Shown here in pieces: positions 13,751-23,640 of a stretch of 23,935 nucleotides of DNA. Position numbers and translations under genes: made by a program. This stretch comes from a virus (Duplodnaviria > Heunggongvirae > Uroviricota > Caudoviricetes): IMG/VR virus record IMGVR_UViG_2563366864_000005, positions 1-23,935 of that record. One strand, written 5' to 3'. Under the pieces are notes generated by a model. The model saw only the letters and a program-made list of their open reading frames with translations. It was not told the origin of the DNA and searched no databases. How positions within the stretch are numbered: the first letter of the stretch is position 1; each line of letters starts with the position of its first letter.

Positions 13751-16700
13751 ATGGGTAAAGGCAGCAGTAAGGGGCATACCCCGCGCGAAGCGAAGGACAA
13801 CCTGAAATCCACGCAGTTGCTGAGTGTGATCGATGTCATCAGCGAAGGTCCGGTTGAAGGTCCGGTGGAGGGATTAAAAAGCGTGCTGCTGAACAGTACG
13901 CCGGTGCTGGACACTGAGGGGAATACCAACATATCCGGTGTCACGGTGGTGTTCCGTGCCGGTGAGCAGGAGCAGACACCGCCGGAGGGGTTTGAATCCT
14001 CCGGCTCCGAGACGGTGCTCGGTACGGAAGTGAAATACGACACGCCGATCACCCGGACCATCACGTCGGCAAACATTGACCGACTGCGTTTTACCTTCGG
14101 CGTGCAGGCACTGGTGGAAACCACCTCAAAGGGGGACAGGAATCCGTCGGAAGTCCGCCTGCTGGTTCAGATACAGCGTAACGGTGGCTGGGTGACGGAA
14201 AAAGACATCACCATTAAGGGCAAAACCACCTCGCAGTATCTGGCCTCGGTGGTGGTGGGTAACCTGCCGCCGCGCCCGTTTAATATCCGGATGCGCAGGA
14301 TGACGCCGGACAGCACCACAGACCAGCTGCTGAACAAAACGCTCTGGTCGTCATACACCGAAATCATCGATGTGAAACAGTGCTACCCGAACACGGCACT
14401 GGTCGGCGTGCAGGTGGACTCGGAACAGTTCGGCAGTCAGCAGGTGAGCCGTAATTATCATCTTCGCGGGCGCATTCTGCAGGTGCCGTCGAACTATAAC
14501 CCGCAGACGCGGCAATACAGCGGTATCTGGGACGGAACGTTAAAACCGGCATACAGCAACAACATGGCCTGGTGTCTGTGGGATATGCTGACCCATCCGC
14601 GCTACGGCATGGGGAAACGTCTTGGTGCGGCGGATGTGGATAAATGGGCGCTGTATGTCATCGGCCAGTACTGCGACCAGTCGGTGCCGGACGGCTTTGG
14701 CGGCACGGAGCCGCGCATTACCTGTAATGCGTACCTGACCACACAGCGCAAGGCGTGGGATGTGCTCAGTGATTTCTGCTCGGCGATGCGCTGTATGCCG
14801 GTATGGAACGGGCAGACGCTGACGTTCGTGCAGGACCGACCATCAGATAAGGTGTGGACCTATAACCGCAGTAATGTGGTGATGCCGGATGATGGCGCGC
14901 CGTTCCGCTACAGCTTCAGCGCCCTGAAGGACCGCCATAATGCCGTTGAGGTGAACTGGATTGACCCGGATAACGGCTGGGAGACGGCGACAGAGCTCGT
15001 GGAGGATACGCAGGCCATTGCCCGTTACGGCCGTAACGTCACGAAGATGGATGCCTTTGGCTGTACCAGCCGGGGGCAGGCACACCGCGCCGGGCTGTGG
15101 CTGATTAAAACGGAGCTGCTGGAAACGCAGACCGTGGACTTCAGCGTGGGTGCTGAAGGGCTTCGCCATGTACCGGGGGATGTCATTGAAATCTGCGATG
15201 ATGACTATGCCGGTATCAGCACCGGTGGTCGTGTGCTGGCGGTGAACAGCCAGACCCGGACGCTGACGCTCGACCGTGAAATCACGCTGCCATCCTCCGG
15301 TACCACGCTGATAAGCCTGGTTGACGGAAGTGGCAATCCGGTCAGCGTGGAGGTTCAGTCCGTCACCGACGGCGTGAAGGTGAAAGTGAGCCGTGTTCCT
15401 GACGGTGTTGCTGAATACAGCGTATGGGGGCTGAAGCTGCCGACGCTGCGCCAGCGACTGTTCCGCTGCGTGAGTATCCGTGAAAACGACGACGGCACGT
15501 ATGCCATCACCGCCGTGCAGCATGTGCCGGAAAAAGAGACCATCGTGGATAACGGGGCGCACTTTGACGGCGAACAGAGTGGCACGGTGAATGGTGTCAC
15601 GCCGCCCGCGGTGCAGCACCTGACCGCAGAAGTCACCGCAGACAGCGGGGAATATCAGGTGCTGGCGCGATGGGACACACCGAAGGTGGTGAAGGGGGTG
15701 AGCTTTATGCTTCGCCTGACCGTGGCAGCGGATGACGGCAGTGAGCGGCTGGTCAGCACGGCCAGGACGACGGAAACCACATACCGCTTCAGGCAACTGG
15801 CGCTGGGGAACTACAGGCTGACAGTCCGGGCGGTAAATGCGTGGGGGCAGCAGGGGGATCCGGCGTCGGTATCGTTCCGGATTGCCGCACCGGCAGCGCC
15901 ATCGCGGATTGAGCTGACGCCGGGCTATTTTCAGATAACCGCAACGCCGCATCTTGCCGTTTATGATCCGACGGTACAGTTTGAGTTCTGGTTCTCGGAA
16001 AAGCGGATTGCGGATATCAGGCAGGTTGAAGCCAGCGCGCGTTATCTTGGTACGGCGCTGTACTGGATAGCCGCCAGTATCAATATCAAACCGGGCCATG
16101 ATTATTATTTTTACATTCGCAGTGTGAACACCGTTGGCAAATCGGCATTTGTGGAGGCTGTTGGCCAGCCGAGTGATGATGCATCCGGCTATCTGGATTT
16201 TTTCAAAGGAGAGATAGGGAAAACCCATCTGGCTCAGGAGTTGTGGACGCAGATTGATAACGGTCAGCTTGCGCCTGACCTGGCTGAAATCAGGACGTCC
16301 ATTACGGATGTCAGCAATGAAATCACGCAGACCGTCAATAAGAAACTGGAAGACCAGAGTGCGGCGATCCAGCAGATACAGAAGGTTCAGGTTGATACAA
16401 ATAATAACCTGAACAGCATGTGGGCTGTGAAGCTGCAGCAGATGCAGGACGGACGCCTTTATATCGCGGGTATTGGTGCCGGTATTGAGAACACCCCTGA
16501 CGGCATGCAGAGTCAGGTGCTGCTGGCGGCGGACAGGATTGCGATGGTTAATCCTGCGAATGGCAACACAAAGCCGATGTTTGTTGGTCAGGGCGATCAG
16601 ATATTCATGAACGAAGTGTTCCTGAAATATCTGACGGCTCCCACCATTACCAGCGGCGGTAATCCTCCGGCATTTTCCCTGACACCGGACGGGCGGCTGA

Positions 16701-17230
16701 CGGCGAAAAATGCCGATATCAGCGGTAACGTGAATGCGAACTCCGGGACGCTCAACAACGTCACGATTAACGAGAACTGCCGGGTTCTGGGAAAACTGTC
16801 CGCGAACCAGATTGAAGGCGATCTCGTTAAAACAGTGGGCAAAGCTTTCCCCCGGGACTCCCGTGCACCGGAACGGTGGCCATCAGGGACCATTACCGTC
16901 AGGATTTATGACGATCAGCCGTTTGACCGGCAGATTGTTATTCCGGCGGTGGCATTCAGCGGCGCTAAACATGAGAGAGAGCATACTGATATTTACTCCT
17001 CATGCCGTCTGATAGTGCGGAAAAACGGTGCTGAAATTTATAACCGTACCGCGCTGGATAATACGCTGATTTACAGTGGCGTTATTGATATGCCTGCCGG
17101 TCACGGTCACATGACGCTGGAGTTTTCGGTGTCAGCATGGCTGGTAAATGACTGGTATCCCACAGCAAGTATCAGCGATTTGCTGGTTGTGGTGATGAAG
17201 AAAGCCACCGCAGGCATCAGTATCAGCTGA
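13751..17230 (+). CDS. J: Tail tip / central tail fiber host-specificity protein J
   Basis: 1159 aa, [37 protein letters not shown]...; lambda gpJ homologue (recalled as 1132 aa); fibronectin-III-like middle segment; ends ...[14 protein letters not shown]. Confidence 0.95.
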
Positions 17231-17297: not shown

Positions 17298-17897
17298 ATG
17301 CGTAAATTATGTGCTGTTATTCTGTCCGCAGTAGTCTGGCTGGTTGCCGCTGGTACGCCAGCGAGCGCAGCAGAGCATCAGTCCACACTAAGCGCCGGGT
17401 ATCTTCAGACCCATACTGATATGCCAGGCAGTGATGACCTGAAGGGCATTAACGTGAAATACCGTTATGAATTTACGGACACGCTGGGGCTGGTGACGTC
17501 ATTCAGTTATGCCAATGCCAAAGATGAGCAAAAAACGCATTACAGCGATACCCGCTGGCATGAAGATTCCGTGCGTAACCGCTGGTTCAGCATGATGGCG
17601 GGGCCATCTGTACGCGTGAATGAATGGTTCAGTGCTTATGCGATGGCGGGTATGGCTTACAGCCGTGTGTCGACCTTCTCCGGGGATTATCTCCGCGTAA
17701 CTGACAACGAGGGGAAAACGCACGATGCGCTGACCGGAAGTGATGACGGTCGCCACAGCAACACGTCTCTGGCGTGGGGAGCTGGCGTGCAGTTTAATCC
17801 GACCGAATCCGTGGCCATTGATATTGCTTATGAAGGCTCCGGCAGTGGCGACTGGCGCACTGACGGTTTCATCGTGGGTGTCGGTTATAAGTTCTGA
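17298..17897 (+). CDS. lom: Outer-membrane beta-barrel protein Lom (Ail/Lom/PagC family), lysogenic-conversion moron
   Basis: 199 aa, signal peptide MRKLCAVILSAVVWLVAAGTPASA; C-terminus ...AIDIAYEGSGSGDWRTDGFIVGVGYKF matches the C-terminus of lambda Lom as I recall it; same position after J. Confidence 0.9.
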   Translation: MRKLCAVILSAVVWLVAAGTPASAAEHQSTLSAGYLQTHTDMPGSDDLKGINVKYRYEFTDTLGLVTSFSYANAKDEQKTHYSDTRWHEDSVRNRWFSMMAGPSVRVNEWFSAYAMAGMAYSRVSTFSGDYLRVTDNEGKTHDALTGSDDGRHSNTSLAWGAGVQFNPTESVAIDIAYEGSGSGDWRTDGFIVGVGYKF

Positions 17898-17952: not shown

Positions 17953-17961
17953 GGAGTGGAT

Positions 17962-20343
17962 ATGGCAGCAGTAAAAATCTCAGGTGTGCTGAAAGATGGT
18001 GCGGGAAAACCAATACAGAACTGCACTATTCAACTGAAGGCAAAGCGTAACAGCACCACGGTACTGGTGAACACGGTTGCCTCTGAAAATCCGGATGAAG
18101 CCGGGCGTTACAGCATGGATGTTGAGTATGGTCAGTACAGCGTTATCCTGCTTGTTGAAGGTTTTCCGCCTTCACATGCCGGGACCATTACCGTCTATGA
18201 AGGCTCCAGACCAGGTACGCTGAATGATTTTCTCGGTGCCATGACGGAAGATGATGTCATGCCGGAGGCATTGCGTCGTTTTGAGGAAATGGTGGAAGAA
18301 GCGGCACGCAACGCTGAAGCCGCCTCTCAGAGCGCAGCGGCGGCAAAGAAATCCGAAACTGCAGCGGCATCATCGAAGAATGCGGCGAAAACCTCAGAAA
18401 CGAATGCAGCTAACAGCGCACAGGCGGCAGCGGCCTCGCAGACTGCATCGGCAAACTCCGCGACAGCAGCCAAAAAATCAGAAACCAACGCGAAAAACAG
18501 CGAGACAGCCGCAAAGACGAGCGAAACCAACGCAAAGTCCAGCCAGACGGCAGCGAAAACCAGCGAAACGAATGCCAAAGCCAGTGAAACTGCGGCGAAA
18601 AACAGCCAGGATGCAGCGGCCCAAAGCGAGAGTGACGCAGCTGGTTCTGCAAGTGCGGCGGCTTCTTCTGCCACTGCATCAGCCAACAGTCAAAAAGCTG
18701 CAAAAACCAGCGAAACCAACGCAAAGTCCAGCCAGACGGCAGCGAAAACCAGCGAAACGAATGCCAAAGCCAGTGAAACTGCGGCGAAAAGCAGTCAGGA
18801 TGCAGCAGCCGAAAGCGAGAGTGCTGCAGCTGGCTCTGCAAGCGCGGCGGCTGCTTCTGCCACTGCATCAGCCAACAGTCAAAAAGCTGCAAAAACCAGT
18901 GAAACCAACGCAAAGGCGAGTGAGACTGCGGCGGCTAACTCGGCGAAAGCATCCGCTGCAAGCCAGACGGCTGCAAAAGCAAGTGAAGACGCAGCCAGAG
19001 AGTATGCAAGCCAGGCTGCGGAGCCGTATAAACAAGTATTGCAGCCGCTTCCCGATGTGTGGATACCGTTTAACGATTCACTGGATATGATTACGGGCTT
19101 TTCGCCGTCATATAAAAAGATTGTTATTGGTGATGATGAAATAACGATGCCTGGCGATAAGATTGTAAAGTTTAAACGCGCATCAAAAGCAACTTACATT
19201 AATAAATCTGGTGTGCTGACAGAGGCTGCCATTGACGAGCCACGGTTTGAATGTGATGGCCTGCTTATTGAGGGGCAAAGAACAAACTACATGCTCAATT
19301 CGGAAAACCCTGCCAGTTGGGGGCGATCGTCAAATATGGATGTGCCCGAAACAGGGACGGATAGTTTTGGTTTTACCTATGGAAAGTTTGTCTGCAACGA
19401 TTCTCTGATTGGGCAAACCTCAGCCATTAATATGGCATCAATTGCTGCAACAAAGTCAGTTGATGTCTCAGGCGATAATAAACACGTGACAACCTCATGT
19501 CGTTTTAAAACAGAACTGCAGGTAAGGTTGCGTATCCGGTTTGATAAATATGACGGTAGCGCAACAACTTTTCTTGGTGATGCGTATATTGATACACAAA
19601 CGCTTGAAATTAATATGACAGGCGGTGCTGCCTCAAGGATTACTGCGAGAGTCAGAAAGGACGAAGCTACCGGATGGATTTTTGCAGAGGCAACAATTCA
19701 GGCAATTGATGGGGAGTTAAAAATAGGTTCTCAGATACAGTATTCTCCTAAGCAGGGCGGGGCAACCGTATCTGGTGACTATATTTATCTGGCCACCCCA
19801 CAAGTAGAAAATGGGCCTTGTGTATCATCTTTTATTATATCAGGAACGACGGCGGCGACCCGCGCAAGCGATATAGTTACAGTTCCCATTAAGAATAATC
19901 TTTATAATCTTCCTTTTACGGTTCTTTGTGAGGTACATAAGAACTGGTATAAAACGCCAAATGCAGCGCCGCGTGTTTTTGATACAGGCGGTCATCAAAC
20001 CGGAGCGGCTATTATTCTTGGGTTCGGATCTTCGGCAGATGGGCCAGACGGATTTCCTTATTGCGATATTGGAGGAGCTAACAGACGGGTAAACGAAAAC
20101 GCATCGCTTGAAAAAATGGTTATGGGGATGCGTGTAAAATCAGATCAGTCTACGTGCTCAGTAAGTAACGGGCGCATATCCAGCGAAAAAAAGACTACGT
20201 GGTCCTATATTCAGAACTCTGCAACCATCCGTATTGGAGGCCAGACTACAGCAGGGTTACGTCATTTATTTGGTCATATCAGGAATTTCAGAATATGGCA
20301 CAAGGCATTGACTGATGCTCAGGTGGGGGAGTCAATCCAATGA
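17962..20343 (+). CDS. stf: Side tail fiber protein: lambda Stf-like N-terminal anchor, Ser/Ala/Thr-rich repeat shaft, divergent C-terminal receptor-binding region with concanavalin-A/LamG-like motif
   Basis: ATG 17962 with GGAG 8 nt upstream (track start is GTG 17956); N-terminus MAAVKISGVLKDGAGKPIQNCTIQLKAKRNSTTVLVNTVASENPDEAGRYSMDVEYGQYSVIL matches lambda Stf; SETNAK-type repeats in the middle; C-terminal ...LRHLFGHIRNFRIWHKALTDAQV resembles the lectin/LamG-like jelly-roll signature. Confidence 0.85.
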   Translation: MAAVKISGVLKDGAGKPIQNCTIQLKAKRNSTTVLVNTVASENPDEAGRYSMDVEYGQYSVILLVEGFPPSHAGTITVYEGSRPGTLNDFLGAMTEDDVMPEALRRFEEMVEEAARNAEAASQSAAAAKKSETAAASSKNAAKTSETNAANSAQAAAASQTASANSATAAKKSETNAKNSETAAKTSETNAKSSQTAAKTSETNAKASETAAKNSQDAAAQSESDAAGSASAAASSATASANSQKAAKTSETNAKSSQTAAKTSETNAKASETAAKSSQDAAAESESAAAGSASAAAASATASANSQKAAKTSETNAKASETAAANSAKASAASQTAAKASEDAAREYASQAAEPYKQVLQPLPDVWIPFNDSLDMITGFSPSYKKIVIGDDEITMPGDKIVKFKRASKATYINKSGVLTEAAIDEPRFECDGLLIEGQRTNYMLNSENPASWGRSSNMDVPETGTDSFGFTYGKFVCNDSLIGQTSAINMASIAATKSVDVSGDNKHVTTSCRFKTELQVRLRIRFDKYDGSATTFLGDAYIDTQTLEINMTGGAASRITARVRKDEATGWIFAEATIQAIDGELKIGSQIQYSPKQGGATVSGDYIYLATPQVENGPCVSSFIISGTTAATRASDIVTVPIKNNLYNLPFTVLCEVHKNWYKTPNAAPRVFDTGGHQTGAAIILGFGSSADGPDGFPYCDIGGANRRVNENASLEKMVMGMRVKSDQSTCSVSNGRISSEKKTTWSYIQNSATIRIGGQTTAGLRHLFGHIRNFRIWHKALTDAQVGESIQ
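18520..18897 (+). repeat. Two tandem copies of a 189-bp in-frame coding repeat (63 aa) inside stf, flanked by more degenerate copies
   Basis: agcgaaaccaacgcaaagtccagccagacggcagcgaaaaccagcgaaacgaatgccaaagccagtgaaactgcggcgaaaa... begins at 18520 and again at 18709 with a handful of substitutions. Confidence 0.85.
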
Positions 20344-20621
20344 AAGATTTAACACTCAAATTTGCAGACAGGGCCGACTTTTCGGCCTTTATGGAGAGCA
20401 CTGGCTATTATGATGACGAGTCGATGCAGGATAATATTCTTATTGACGTGATAGGTAACGTGTACAAAGAAACCGGAGAACTGACTGAAGATGGCGAACC
20501 GGTATGTGTTAAGGAAGACGGATATTTTGTAAACGTGCGCATCATTAATGATGCAAAAAAATCGTCAATATTCGATAAATACGCGGTTGTTGTTGAGCAT
20601 CAACTTCGTGGCTGGATGTGA
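20340..20621 (+). CDS. Hypothetical acidic 93-aa protein, translationally coupled to stf (possible fiber assembly factor)
   Basis: ATG overlaps the stf stop in an ATGA arrangement at 20340-20343; no recognisable motif; low-GC like the stf 3' end. Confidence 0.5.
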   Translation: MKDLTLKFADRADFSAFMESTGYYDDESMQDNILIDVIGNVYKETGELTEDGEPVCVKEDGYFVNVRIINDAKKSSIFDKYAVVVEHQLRGWM

Positions 20622-20630
20622 GGGAGACAA

Positions 20631-21335
20631 ATGGCTACATCGACAGTAATTCCAGGAGATATCACCACGCTAAAGGGAGATGTCAGTAAAACTAAGGAAG
20701 ATATTTCCTCAATTAACGGAAAAGTATCAACGCTTCAGACTGATATGACCAGTGCAAAGCAGGATATCAGCACCAGATACACAAAAACTGAAGTTGATAA
20801 TAAGCTGAAAAACAAACTGGAAGTGAACGATCTGGAAAGCGGTCGTTATGGTGGAGATTTTTACCCGCTGACTGGCCGTGAAGCGTTTTATTTATGGGAA
20901 TTGGGCACGACTACAGCGGCGGCAAATCTTTATCTTAATCCTGACCCTGCAATTTCGTCTGTACTGCGGTCAACATCGTCTATTCGCTATAAACATTCAG
21001 TAGAGACAATAGATTCAGAGCACGCCGATCTCATTTTCAGGATGCGCCCTGTGTGGTACAGGTCGCAATGCGAAAATGACAGGAGTGACTGGGGATTCTA
21101 CGGATTGATTGCCGAGGAAGTGGGAGAAATTGCTCCTCAGTTTGTACACTGGCGACCAGCTAACGAAGATGATGCTCCTGAAGCTATTTCCAGCAATGGC
21201 CTTGTTGCCGAAGGTGTAATGTACGAACGTCTGGTTGTTCCACTGATTCACCATATCCAGAAACTGACTGAAAGAGTTGATGAACTTGAGTCAGAGTTAA
21301 AGTTGTTATCCGTTTCCCGAAGCGATATCGAATAA
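20631..21335 (+). CDS. Coiled-coil protein carrying a C-terminal Peptidase_S74-type intramolecular chaperone domain (tail fiber/spike chaperone module)
   Basis: Shine-Dalgarno gagggag upstream of ATG; C-terminal SSIRYKHSVETIDSEHADLIFRMRPVWYR...WGFYGLIAEEVGEIAPQFV...NGLVAEGVMYERLVVPLIHHIQKLTERVDELESEL matches my recollection of the S74 domain consensus (SDxRLK ... lrPV.Y ... GliAqEV ... P.V ... dG ... vdY ... L ... eLe); N-terminal ~110 aa has fiber-like heptad repeats. Confidence 0.7.
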   Translation: MATSTVIPGDITTLKGDVSKTKEDISSINGKVSTLQTDMTSAKQDISTRYTKTEVDNKLKNKLEVNDLESGRYGGDFYPLTGREAFYLWELGTTTAAANLYLNPDPAISSVLRSTSSIRYKHSVETIDSEHADLIFRMRPVWYRSQCENDRSDWGFYGLIAEEVGEIAPQFVHWRPANEDDAPEAISSNGLVAEGVMYERLVVPLIHHIQKLTERVDELESELKLLSVSRSDIE

Positions 21336-21345
21336 AGGAGGCGTA

Positions 21346-21633
21346 ATGGATATAACACCTTTTCTTCATGCGCTTTGTGCTGTGGCTGCGCAGGTACTGA
21401 TTGGCCTTTTTACCGGAAACTGGGTTTACGGGGCGATAGCTGGTTGTACGTTCTTCATTGCGCGTGAACACACCCAGGCAGAATATCGCTGGATTGAAAT
21501 GTTCGGGCATGGCAAGCGTATGAATATGCCGTGGTGGGGCGGTTTTGATCCACGTGCTTGGGATGTGGCAAGCCTGATGGATTTTGCGGTGCCGGTGGTA
21601 GCGTGTCTGCTGGTCTGGCTGTTTATCCGTTAA
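21346..21633 (+). CDS. Hypothetical small membrane protein (95 aa, two predicted transmembrane helices)
   Basis: aaaggagg Shine-Dalgarno then ATG; hydrophobic segments ALCAVAAQVLIGLFTGNWVYGAIAGCTFFIA and LMDFAVPVVACLLVWLFI; function not recognisable. Confidence 0.55.
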   Translation: MDITPFLHALCAVAAQVLIGLFTGNWVYGAIAGCTFFIAREHTQAEYRWIEMFGHGKRMNMPWWGGFDPRAWDVASLMDFAVPVVACLLVWLFIR

Positions 21634-21641
21634 ACATAAAA

Positions 21642-21690
21642 AGCCGCAGCAACTTGTCATGGCAGGATACTGCGGCTGGTTTGTGAGTTT
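21642..21690. terminator. Possible bidirectional terminator between the convergent + strand fiber operon and the - strand RT operon
   Basis: 8-bp stem agccgcag(21642-21649) / ctgcggct(21670-21677) with an unusually long 20-nt loop; A-run upstream and gtttgtgagttt downstream. Confidence 0.35.
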
Positions 21691-21740
21691 AAATAGTGTG
21701 TTTATTACGGTATATTTAAAGGACTTAATGGATTACATAT

Positions 21741-23117
21741 CTATGATATTCCTGAAATATCCTCTTCAAGTTCTTTTACTGATTTCGCAATTTTAAATTT
21801 AAATTTCCTCTCTATTTCACTATTGCTAAGTTTTTTTTCCTTCTCTTTCCCTATCCACATAGAAACAAGTTCTCGTTTCTGAGATATATGTAGATTGTCA
21901 AAGTTAGGTATGTATTTAAAAGTCTCCGCTCTACCTCTGCGGAGTTCATAGAAAGTTTTAATCAAAGACTTTGGTTTTATTTCTGATAAAAGGCCGAATC
22001 GGCGGATAAGATTATTGATAGTATGATTAACAGAGCGAAGTTGAGCTGTTGAGGTTATTTGTGAGAAGTACGATACCCATCCCAATCGTTTACCTTCAAA
22101 CACACATCCCGTAATTCTGAGATTTAGTTTCCACTGACAATATGCAACAGCTCGTTCTTTATCGCGCTTACTTTTAGCTTGTAGTAGAGCGTGCCTATAT
22201 GCAGTAAAAATTTTTGCTAAGGATGACTCAAATCTAAGAATGCTCTCATGTTTTATCAATAATTCTCGATTTTCTATGTGGTATCCCAAAAAGTTAAAAC
22301 TTTCATCCAAGCTGCCTACTTTGGATTTTGAGTTCTCTTCATTTAATGGATGTGGGTTTAAATTTAATGATTGAAGCTTATCAATGATATGAGATGCTAT
22401 TTTTGTTGCTTGATATTTGGGCGTTAAAATAAGAATGTCATCAACGTATCGCATGTACCATATGCCATGCATTTTATTGATTTCATCATCGAAATTAGAT
22501 AGTGATATTTCAGCTAAAATGTTTGATATCGCTAATCCCTGAGGTACTCCTCTGGTATTATTAGGGATACCTTTGCTTCCTGTACTTCCACTTACAGTAG
22601 GTACGATTAATGATGATGTTATTAACTGTCTAATTTCTTTTTTTCTAATCTTATTTTTTATTGCATTAAATATCAATTTATGTTCAATTGAAGGATAGAA
22701 ACTTTTAAGATCTATTTTTGCATATTCAGCATATAGACTGCAGTTTAATGCTTCTTTCAATGAGTCAATTACTGTATGTGGTAGTTTTAATCTGGAATTA
22801 GGATATATTTCCGTAAGGCATTCACAGAGAGCCCTAAGAGTAATTCTGTCCCTAGCAGTTGGTATGGAAATCTGTCTGGGGGTAGAGTTAGCCCCTTTAG
22901 ATATTAATTTTTCTTTATATGCTGTAAATTTATAATTACCAGAATTAACCTTTTCAAAAATGAAAGTGATCTCATTGTTTATTGTTAAATCAAGTTTTGA
23001 TGGGCGAATCCGATCTATGCCAATCGCTCCTGATTCTTTGATTTTTTCAGTGTATACTTTTAGAAGGTTTTTTTTCGAGAATGACTTTTTAAAAATTCTA
23101 CTTGCAGTCATAGTCAA
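21741..23117 (-). CDS. Reverse transcriptase (458 aa), stand-alone RT domain of prokaryotic defence-associated type (retron-like or UG/Abi-like; class unresolved)
   Basis: RT motifs in order: PRQISIPTARDRITLRAL (motif 1), YAEYAKIDLKSFYPSI (motif 2, Asp136), GVPQGLAISNILAEI (motif B), YMRYVDDILIL (motif C, YVDD at + coords 22437-22448), FLGYHI (motif 7), then RITG in the thumb region; about 30% GC; start overlaps the upstream membrane-protein gene by 20 nt. Confidence 0.85.
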   Translation of the reverse strand: MTMTASRIFKKSFSKKNLLKVYTEKIKESGAIGIDRIRPSKLDLTINNEITFIFEKVNSGNYKFTAYKEKLISKGANSTPRQISIPTARDRITLRALCECLTEIYPNSRLKLPHTVIDSLKEALNCSLYAEYAKIDLKSFYPSIEHKLIFNAIKNKIRKKEIRQLITSSLIVPTVSGSTGSKGIPNNTRGVPQGLAISNILAEISLSNFDDEINKMHGIWYMRYVDDILILTPKYQATKIASHIIDKLQSLNLNPHPLNEENSKSKVGSLDESFNFLGYHIENRELLIKHESILRFESSLAKIFTAYRHALLQAKSKRDKERAVAYCQWKLNLRITGCVFEGKRLGWVSYFSQITSTAQLRSVNHTINNLIRRFGLLSEIKPKSLIKTFYELRRGRAETFKYIPNFDNLHISQKRELVSMWIGKEKEKKLSNSEIERKFKFKIAKSVKELEEDISGIS

Positions 23118-23640
23118 TCCAAAGATATATTAATGGTAGTATATAAAGTGCGGCAGTAATAAATATTCGAAGTAATATCCATAAATTAACAATTATTTTT
23201 TCTTTTTGTGTGGGGAGCCTCGTCGTAAGTCCAACTTGAGTTACCCTTGAAACTTTATCATCTATCTCACGATGATTCTCAACCTCATTGAGCAAATTAA
23301 AATATTTTTCTTTCTGTTCAGGAGTTAATTGTTGGCCGTTGGTAATGTCAAAATAGAGTCGCTGTAGTGCAATATAATTCCTTCTCATGGCTATTGCTCG
23401 ACCACGAAAATCTAGGTTAGATACGATCAGAGAAATACCTAGTAGAGCCACTGAAAGTATCGCTGCAACGATATCTGTATTATCTCCTAGAACTTTTGGA
23501 AATCGTAACGTTACAATTGAAAGCACCGCACTCAATATAGCATACCAAACGAGGATAAATTGAGAGTGTTTTTCAAGCCATTCTAGTCGATGGTGCGCTT
23601 GGATACGGGCTTTATATGTAAACCAAATATTGTCATGCAT
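23098..23640 (-). CDS. Small membrane protein (180 aa), N-terminal amphipathic helix plus two transmembrane helices and a C-terminal transmembrane helix; SLATT-like candidate effector partner of the RT
   Basis: MHDNIWFTYKARIQAHHRLEWLEKHSQ then hydrophobic FILVWYAILSAVLSIVTL and IVAAILSVALLGISLIVSNL, basic loop RGRAIAMRRNY, C-terminal IIVNLWILLRIFITAALYILPLIYLWI; AGGA ribosome-binding site upstream of the ATG at 23640; 3' end overlaps the RT start. Confidence 0.65.
   Translation of the reverse strand: MHDNIWFTYKARIQAHHRLEWLEKHSQFILVWYAILSAVLSIVTLRFPKVLGDNTDIVAAILSVALLGISLIVSNLDFRGRAIAMRRNYIALQRLYFDITNGQQLTPEQKEKYFNLLNEVENHREIDDKVSRVTQVGLTTRLPTQKEKIIVNLWILLRIFITAALYILPLIYLWIDYDCK

Follow-up and report, generated by a model that had tools for sequence, protein, structure and literature searches.

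Why would a lambdoid prophage of Escherichia coli carry a Peptidase_S74 intramolecular-chaperone domain in a small gene of its own, apart from the side tail fibre gene (stf)? The gene in question lies at 20631-21335 of IMGVR_UViG_2563366864_000005, a 23,935-nucleotide stretch of Caudoviricetes DNA that was analysed at its full length and is referred to here as the window. A preliminary description had offered three options for the encoded 234-residue protein, namely action in trans on the upstream fibre protein (Stf), a very short second fibre, or the remnant of a displaced fibre gene. Of these, the evidence favours the second, as the protein combines an anchor, heptad repeats, a true fibre tip and a chaperone. 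With a probability of roughly 60%, the gene encodes a miniature, self-trimerising, self-cleaving distal subunit of a two-part side tail fibre, docked on Stf as an accessory and dispensable adhesin tip.

The open reading frame (ORF) is intact, with an ATG start and a TAA stop, and the predicted 26.3-kDa precursor comprises 12.5 kDa in residues 1-115 and 13.8 kDa in residues 116-234. Its features, including those of a structure model from AlphaFold2 (AF2), are as follows.

20620-20626, plus strand: Shine-Dalgarno-like GAGGGAG, read from the sequence, four nucleotides 5' of the ATG.
20631-21335, plus strand: gene of the 234-residue protein, the putative miniature distal fibre subunit with a C-terminal S74 domain (ORF, Pfam, AF2 and alignments).
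20631-20675, plus strand: N-terminal anchor motif MATSTVIPGDITTLK (residues 1-15), common to all proteins of the same gene slot.
20652-20777, plus strand: six 7-residue repeats (residues 8-49) with the pattern x-x-D-[IVM]-S/T-x-[LIA], from the heptad layout and the AF2 helix.
20778-20975, plus strand: junction motif YTKTEVDNKL (residues 50-59) and tip segment (residues 63-115) ending GTTTAAANLYLNPDPAISSVLRST, from conservation with long fibres.
20973-20993, plus strand: predicted autocleavage site between Thr115 and Ser116 with the catalytic dyad (Ser116 at 20976-20978, Lys121 at 20991-20993).
20976-21332, plus strand: Peptidase_S74 or intramolecular chaperone domain (residues 116-234), from Pfam, AF2 and Foldseek.
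21102-21122, plus strand: GLIAEEV core (residues 158-164) within the S74 domain.
21222-21329, plus strand: predicted C-terminal trimerising helix (residues 198-233), from AF2.

Membership of the S74 family was confirmed, far beyond chance. The hidden Markov model search that the preliminary description had proposed placed PF13884 on residues 116-172 (model positions 1-57/58, E = 7e-6) at 26.7 bits, above the gathering cut-off of 22 bits. The SSIRYK motif, previously picked out as the candidate Ser/Lys pair, runs from S116 to K121, spaced as S-x4-K like the catalytic dyad, and opens the S74 domain. In 32 homologues with identities down to 26%, neither of the two residues varies, and nor do G158, I160, A161 and E162 in the GLIAEEV core; S116 and K121 are also invariant in a second set of eight aligned homologues. 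A phmmer search against PDB sequences matched the C-terminus of DT57C LtfA (chain 8hqz_d, E = 1.9e-7) as well as the ICA domain of MyRF (7dc3), and S116 and K121 align with the S-x4-K of LtfA and with S587 and K592 of MyRF; this Ser-Lys dyad of S74/ICA domains has been defined in earlier work (PMC4690869, PMC8326128). In the AF2 model, a monomer with trimer geometry outside its reach, residues ~120-233 have a predicted local distance difference test score (pLDDT) of about 79-92 and include a long C-terminal helix. The best Foldseek match was again the MyRF ICA domain (7dc3; E = 1.7e-5, TM-score 0.55-0.58 on the target), followed by GA-1 (3gud) and endoNF (3gw6). An exhaustive phmmer search with the 234-residue protein returned 3567 matches at E ≤ 1e-3, while PADLOC and NCBIfam searches returned nothing for it.

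By analogy, autoproteolysis is predicted between Thr115 and Ser116, which would yield a 12.5-kDa mature chain and a 13.8-kDa chaperone. The residue pair is the same as at the scissile bond of T5 pb1, Thr1263-Ser1264 (PMC4690869), and GTTTAAANLYLNPDPAISSVLRST directly precedes Ser116. In T5 pb1 and endoNF, a folding-sensing arginine of the neighbouring chain (Arg1250 and Arg897, respectively) lies about 14 residues before the cleavage site; in a sequence alignment and the monomer model, the nearly invariant R113 of the 234-residue protein is at -3. Characterised S74 domains act in cis on the segment directly upstream of them, with cleavage coupled to the folding of that segment (PMC4690869, PMC8326128). 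The S74 domain studied here is likewise C-terminal, and stands right after a conserved but unusually short segment, residues 63-115.

The N-terminal 110 residues had been described as only a coiled-coil-like segment. Six heptads are indeed present at residues 8-49, but the same part of the protein also holds the anchor (residues 1-15), the YTKTEVDNKL motif and the fibre-tip segment. In the AF2 monomer the anchor residues are a low-pLDDT coil and the heptad region is a helix (residues 12-47, pLDDT 72-79), and the six heptads are predicted to form a helical, trimeric coiled-coil shaft. Natural alleles vary by whole heptads (DVSKTKE, for example, is absent from P0003), the heptads resemble those of the P22 gp26 needle in the phmmer search against PDB sequences, and YTKTEVD is also found in the shaft of DT57C LtfA.

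What follows the heptads is not particular to small proteins. In the exhaustive phmmer search, the stretch from residue ~24, 37 or 49 to residue 234 recurred as the extreme C-terminus of fibres of 539-1243 residues at 49-60% identity, including the lambdoid Stf proteins P0065 and P0067 (phage_tail_N, Phage_fiber_2 and S74) and fibres with Gp34_trimer/gp37_C or P2-collar domains. The tip segment is also conserved with Gp24 of phage IrisVonRoten, in the last strand region ahead of the Gp24 cleavage site, and S74 proteins of 213-297 residues are not rare among the best 150 cluster representatives. Because this tip-plus-chaperone module is shared with long fibres, the S74 domain here still has a cis substrate of its own. 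The view that the domain sits in a separate gene stands, but the part of it that held the domain to be unfused from a fibre does not: judged by its sequence, the domain is fused in cis to a minimal fibre, the module being joined to the 15-residue anchor.

Lambdoid Stf proteins that begin almost like the Stf of the window carry the module in fused form, which makes a recombinational origin plausible. This would also suit a non-functional remnant, that is, the leftover 3' end of a one-piece stf gene displaced by an incoming lectin-like end and the 93-residue-protein gene that now follows stf, except that the gene is equipped with a start codon, a ribosome-binding site and a dedicated anchor motif of its own. 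All 80 close relatives (viral contigs fetched by protein match) are intact. The ratio of non-synonymous to synonymous substitution rates (dN/dS; Nei-Gojobori, 49 unique close alleles from the viral-contig relatives and annotated lambdoid copies) was 0.16 overall, with 0.25 for residues 1-60, 0.16 for residues 61-115 and 0.12 for residues 116-234; the allele pairs are not phylogenetically independent, though the signal is uniform nonetheless. The gene is thus under purifying selection in every segment (<0.26). Further, virulent T1-like phages carry full-length orthologues (~57-61% identity) in the same position, with saturated synonymous sites. Taken together, the intact copies, the purifying selection and the saturated T1-like orthologues exclude a decaying remnant, and this third option of the preliminary description is left with hardly any probability. 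Among the fetched loci, the only broken genes in this position were two viral-contig copies of a longer, 346-residue (Tritos) type, each frameshifted into ORFs of 90 and 309 residues (L151 1634-2675 and L154 3792-4833), while the copies of the 221-241-residue type were all intact.

The neighbours of the gene at the end of the late operon are the following.

17956-20343, plus strand: stf, 795 residues, proximal side tail fibre (Pfam phage_tail_N, PHROG 1419).
20340-20621, plus strand: gene of a 93-residue acidic protein (PHROG 1361).
21346-21633, plus strand: gene of a 95-residue predicted membrane protein of unknown function, at the end of the late operon (PHROG 1443).

Stf carries the Pfam domain phage_tail_N at residues 5-134 (E = 6e-67; PHROG 1419, tail protein), followed by an Ala/Ser-rich repeat shaft and a distal, lectin-like domain of ~440 residues (residues ~355-795, nucleotides 19018-20340). 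The NCBIfam model NF048003 (GTA_spike_fiber, phage head spike fiber domain) matches residues 437-637 (19264-19866) above its cut-off (E = 7.6e-14), and the C-terminus has a weak Laminin_G_3 match. The AF2 model of the distal domain was built from a shallow alignment (mean pLDDT 43.6), and its best Foldseek matches (phage tail-fibre chains, CBM4 and lectin-type beta-sandwiches) were used as weak support only. On this modelling, the Stf end looks like a lectin-type beta-sandwich and not like the intertwined trimer that S74 chaperones fold. It finishes in a LamG-type motif, with no sequence resembling a pre-cleavage segment, and Pfam and PHROG searches found neither an S74 domain in Stf nor a Tfa-type gene accompanying it. 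The whole protein is 52% identical to Gp22 of IrisVonRoten, described with a ‘galectin-like’ domain (PMC11990801) with which the lectin-like end of the window Stf agrees, and 43% identical to the lateral tail fibre of KarlJaspers; the same allele recurs at 98% identity in P0205. Apart from this, the NF048003 match links the end of a lambdoid side fibre to a family that NCBI names after the head-spike fibre of gene transfer agents, and the AKTSETNAKxSETAA units of the shaft (18250-19100, plus strand) produce long spurious ORFs, such as 279 residues at 18251-19090 and 167 residues at 18410-18913 on the minus strand.

Between stf and the S74 gene stands the gene of the 93-residue protein, which belongs to PHROG 1361 (E = 2.6e-46) and has no match in Pfam, NCBIfam or PDB. 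In 181 phage records (lambdoid, T1-like, T5-like, 9g-like, Dhillonvirus and rV5-like) a homologue stands directly 3' of a fibre gene, and the window protein is 53% identical to that of KarlJaspers. It is a very widespread, uncharacterised fibre companion that may act in fibre assembly or as a connector. The ATG of its gene shares nucleotides with the stf stop (ATGA), an overlap indicating that the genes are tightly coupled in the late operon. The 93-residue and 234-residue ORFs share one reading frame, separated by a TGA and three codons (20619-20633), and their start-to-start spacing is 285-291 nucleotides in most cassettes, KarlJaspers excepted. Read-through into a fusion of the two was considered and rejected, because KarlJaspers breaks the frame relation and each gene has its own start context; the common spacing is probably inherited and not a matter of programmed read-through.

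The three genes recur together as a cassette, in which the gene of a lectin-ended lateral or side fibre is followed by a gene for ~92-93 residues and then by an S74-bearing gene. This cassette was found in the Drexlerviridae (KarlJaspers, PeterMerian, SECphi27 and swan01), in Nonagvirus (ESCO3), in Tequintavirus (HMD-P4, IrisVonRoten and mar004NP2) and in several lambdoid phages, and the gene order and spacing of the window were matched in loci L001-L007, L088, L173 and L175. Between the window and KarlJaspers the fibre, the 93-residue protein and the S74 protein are 43%, 53% and ~60% identical, respectively. Sequence comparison thus presents the cassette as mobile and homologous across four lineages (lambdoid, T1-like, T5-like and 9g-like). 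In Tritos, a gene for a PinR-type site-specific recombinase lies just 3' of the cassette (L002 7936-8526); neither such a gene nor an inverted-repeat system was seen in the window, where no dedicated search was made.

The third slot of the cassette is occupied by proteins that begin and end alike, with different bodies in between. All ten slot-3 proteins compared start with the anchor M-[AV]-T-x-T-[VN]-I-P-x-D-I-x-x-L-K, identical to that of the window at 13 of 15 positions in Tritos (346 residues) and ESCO3 (351 residues) and at 11 of 15 in HMD-P4 (333 residues), IrisVonRoten Gp24 (574 residues) and mar004NP2_00162. All end in Peptidase_S74, and beyond the anchor the larger ones are unrelated or only distantly related to the window protein. 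Predicted mature lengths are 98-121 residues in the small class, 221-226 in Tritos, ESCO3 and HMD-P4, and 463 in Gp24; the stretch from anchor to chaperone amounts to ~100 residues in the window (the heptads and a 53-residue tip), ~210 in the Tritos type and ~450 in Gp24. A constant N-terminus with a swappable body characterises fibre proteins docking on a partner that is itself conserved. For the small protein this partner is probably Stf, with the 93-residue protein as the other candidate. With only ~100 residues between anchor and chaperone, and no sizeable receptor-binding domain among them, the 234-residue protein is a minimal rather than a typical member of the Gp24-type distal subunits.

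From these parts, and by analogy with characterised systems, an assembly pathway can be proposed. As in T5 pb1, endoNF and MyRF, the C-terminal helix of the chaperone would nucleate three chains, upon which the S74 chaperone would template the short tip and the coiled coil of the trimer. Ser116 and Lys121 would then cut Thr115-Ser116 in cis and the 13.8-kDa chaperone would leave, so that a trimer of ~12.5 kDa (115 residues) per chain would remain. The anchor (residues 1-15) would dock this trimer on the distal part of Stf, as suggested by the shared anchor and by published AlphaFold-Multimer models of Gp22 and Gp24, and the docked trimer would form a short accessory tip beside the lectin-like domain of Stf.

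Several observations weigh against a self-cleaving adhesin tip. The tip is strongly conserved, unlike the variable tips that track O-antigens, and the mature part is tiny. The AF2 monomer leaves residues 63-114 unmodelled. The slot-3 product was not among the proteins of the virion proteomes of swan01 and mar004NP2, in which only 5-8 proteins were detected and which neither support nor exclude its incorporation. In a tblastn search with a gp24-type N-terminus, the anchor was not shared with the genetically characterised LtfB of DT57C. Nor did a literature search by phage names and S74 function terms turn up a publication about the small protein; the one on CSP1 deals with a large fibre whose chaperone is in cis.

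The conservation and small size of the tip would fit a protein that is assembled, cleaved and docked on Stf as proposed, but without a role in receptor binding, a structural cap that completes or stabilises the fibre end or fills the docking site of larger receptor-binding proteins. The 115-residue mature part lacks the receptor-binding domains of Gp24 or of the Tritos-type proteins, its tip is ~60% identical between lambdoid and T1-like phages at a low dN/dS, unlike specificity determinants, and DT57C LtfA appeared unstable without LtfB (PMC4728585). The same tip, however, is the last part of long one-piece fibres, with no domain distal to it, and is thereby placed where receptor contact would be expected. 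A related Stf end also goes without the gene in many phage records and genomes (see below), meaning that no cap is generally needed. A purely structural role is accordingly a minority possibility, unlikely but worth keeping in view beside the adhesin tip.

The dispensability of the gene was probed with 201 nucleotides across the direct junction of a 92-residue-protein gene and the membrane-protein gene. This probe matched 27 phage records without interruption, phage 21, mEp460 and Lambda_2E9 among them, as well as 1127 of 5426 E. coli genomes; the 234-residue gene is therefore optional. The Stf end of this two-gene version is 60% identical to that of KarlJaspers, which the S74 gene does follow; the version carries an Stf allele related to, but other than, that of the window, with 43% identity in the distal domain, and the window's own allele was not seen without the S74 gene. 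In rV5-like phages a 93-residue homologue follows the fibre and no anchor-bearing S74 gene comes after it. A scan of a contig collection with the 93-residue protein gave only four loci, because the collection holds one genome per species, and revealed a cassette without the third gene. Since cassettes without the S74 gene exist, the small protein is no general folding requirement of this fibre end.

This bears on the option of action in trans, by which the S74 domain, or the whole small trimer, would help Stf to trimerise or fold and would not be a component of the virion. Annotations in BASEL and other phage records do read ‘putative lateral tail fiber chaperone’ and ‘chaperone of endosialidase’, and Stf, lacking an S74 domain or Tfa-type gene, could seem in need of such help; but the database names derive from the Pfam title and not from experiments, and no paper on such a role was found. 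That the gene is optional and that all studied S74 domains act in cis argue against a trans chaperone, the more so as the conserved cis segment is present in the protein itself. The related Stf ends that go without the gene, the lectin-like end with its LamG-type motif and no pre-cleavage-like sequence, and the fibre anatomy of the 234-residue protein, which has no match to a Tfa-type family in Pfam, PHROG or NCBIfam, point in the same direction. Action in trans on Stf is consequently disfavoured and appears quite improbable. A related and rather doubtful idea, to which slightly more credence may be given, is that the 115-residue trimer is no adhesin and that it, or its S74 domain ahead of release, serves as an intermolecular assembly device, plugging the docking site of Stf and the 93-residue protein for a time or for good and driving or stabilising trimerisation of the lectin-ended fibre. 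If true, this would be the first S74 intramolecular chaperone in an intermolecular role.

Seen as a whole, the window covers the right arm of a lambdoid E. coli prophage, and the genes around the fibre operon are as follows.

13751-17230, plus strand: J, an ORF of the window.
17298-17897, plus strand: lom, an ORF of the window.
21741-23640, minus strand: a reverse transcriptase and SLATT gene pair at the prophage end (PADLOC matches).

An E. coli chromosome is 100% identical to the window over 20300-21700, and there the region adjoins prfC and PGAP labels the 234-residue gene ‘tail fiber domain-containing protein’; of 5426 complete E. coli genomes, ~720 contain at least 80% of 20300-21700. Around the gene there was no excess of promoter- or terminator-like sequence, and the ORFs that overlap it (21015-21254 and 21184-21660 on the minus strand, 20878-21003 on the plus strand) had no PHROG match and were set aside. 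The gene of the 95-residue membrane protein is kept in lambdoid phages with or without the S74 gene and stands directly 3' of the 92-residue-protein gene in the two-gene version. The reverse transcriptase (458 residues) matches PADLOC RT_UG17 (E = 1.4e-158) and overlaps a 180-residue SLATT_5 or ‘RTasSLATT’ membrane protein (E = 4.6e-57), and the pair is a candidate, on its sequence matches, for a DRT-class defence-type system; in the identical chromosome it sits between the tail-fibre operon and a DinI-like gene beside prfC. In phage Lambda_2E9, the position corresponding to the reverse transcriptase-SLATT pair of the window, after a two-gene cassette, holds a sitABCD manganese/iron ABC transporter operon as cargo (L172 4677-8126).

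For a gene that is very common in E. coli prophages, the current labels (‘hypothetical’, ‘tail fiber domain-containing protein’, ‘chaperone of endosialidase’ and ‘putative lateral tail fiber chaperone’) would be better replaced by one of a probable minimal self-processing distal fibre subunit, in the third, exchangeable slot of a side-tail-fibre cassette that travels widely. Proteins of this slot form a graded series with about 100, 220 and 460 mature residues on one 15-residue anchor, with S74 ends. The slot may lend itself to the engineering of lambdoid, T1-like and T5-like fibres as a natural place to plug in receptor-binding modules, and its minimal version may serve as a compact model for S74 chaperone folding of a very short trimeric substrate. 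Nothing known about S74 domains is overturned, the gene being an ordinary part of modular phage fibres; the main value lies in correcting the ‘chaperone’ label and in defining a plug-in slot with a 15-residue anchor.

Among described systems, the Gp22-Gp23-Gp24 genes of IrisVonRoten (Bas32, Tequintavirus) are the same three genes in the same order. In the published complex, which is itself a prediction, Gp24 sits on Gp22, the proximal fibre, and is the distal protein that binds the receptor (Humolli et al. 2025, PMC11990801). Gp22 has the same distal domain as the window Stf, Gp23 is the homologue of the 93-residue protein, and Gp24 starts with the same anchor (MVTKTVIPTDITKLK) and ends in Peptidase_S74. 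Unlike the window protein, though, Gp24 has 574 residues, two receptor-binding domains (Gp12-like and T5-like) and ~463 mature residues; of this the window protein keeps only the anchor, the coiled coil and the last ~30 residues before cleavage, and the two chaperones are ~27% identical.

The lambdoid Stf proteins P0065 (735 residues) and P0067 (958 residues) show the same module in the opposite arrangement. Their phage_tail_N domain is that of the window Stf, and their C-termini align to residues ~37-234 of the small protein at 57-59% identity, with a near-identical C-terminal helix, but in them the module is continuous, in cis, with a long fibre and lacks the anchor, whereas in the window it forms a separate gene after a lectin-ended Stf. 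The chaperones of T5 pb1 and K1F endoNF share with the window protein the S-x4-K dyad, the C-terminal trimerising helix and the fold, and pb1 also the Thr-Ser scissile bond. They differ in what they fold, which is large receptor-binding or enzymatic domains of proteins of >1000 residues, compared to a substrate of ~100 residues here. In lambda, with Stf and Tfa, the late operon likewise closes with a side tail fibre gene and one or more small accessory genes. Tfa is a distinct protein that assists assembly in trans and neither carries an S74 domain nor cleaves itself. Pfam and PHROG searches found no Tfa homologue in the window, whose small protein has the anatomy of a fibre and not that of Tfa.

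By analogy, the closest characterised functional counterpart is the pair of LtfA and LtfB in DT57C and DT571/2, which form branched lateral fibres, are encoded by adjacent genes and each carry a pfam13884 self-cleaving chaperone; a short stretch at the N-terminus of LtfB holds it on LtfA, and with LtfB comes a second specificity (Golomidova et al. 2016, PMC4728585; Ayala et al. 2023, PMC10713586). Among PDB sequences, none matches the window protein better than the C-terminus of DT57C LtfA. The window differs in having a gene for ~93 residues between the two fibre genes and a first fibre without S74. A tblastn search of DT571/2 with the gp24-type, anchor-bearing N-terminus matched only from residue 27 on, within ltfA, the window protein not itself having been compared with LtfB. 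As the anchor is not homologous to LtfB, the protein of the window would work like LtfB without being a member of its family.

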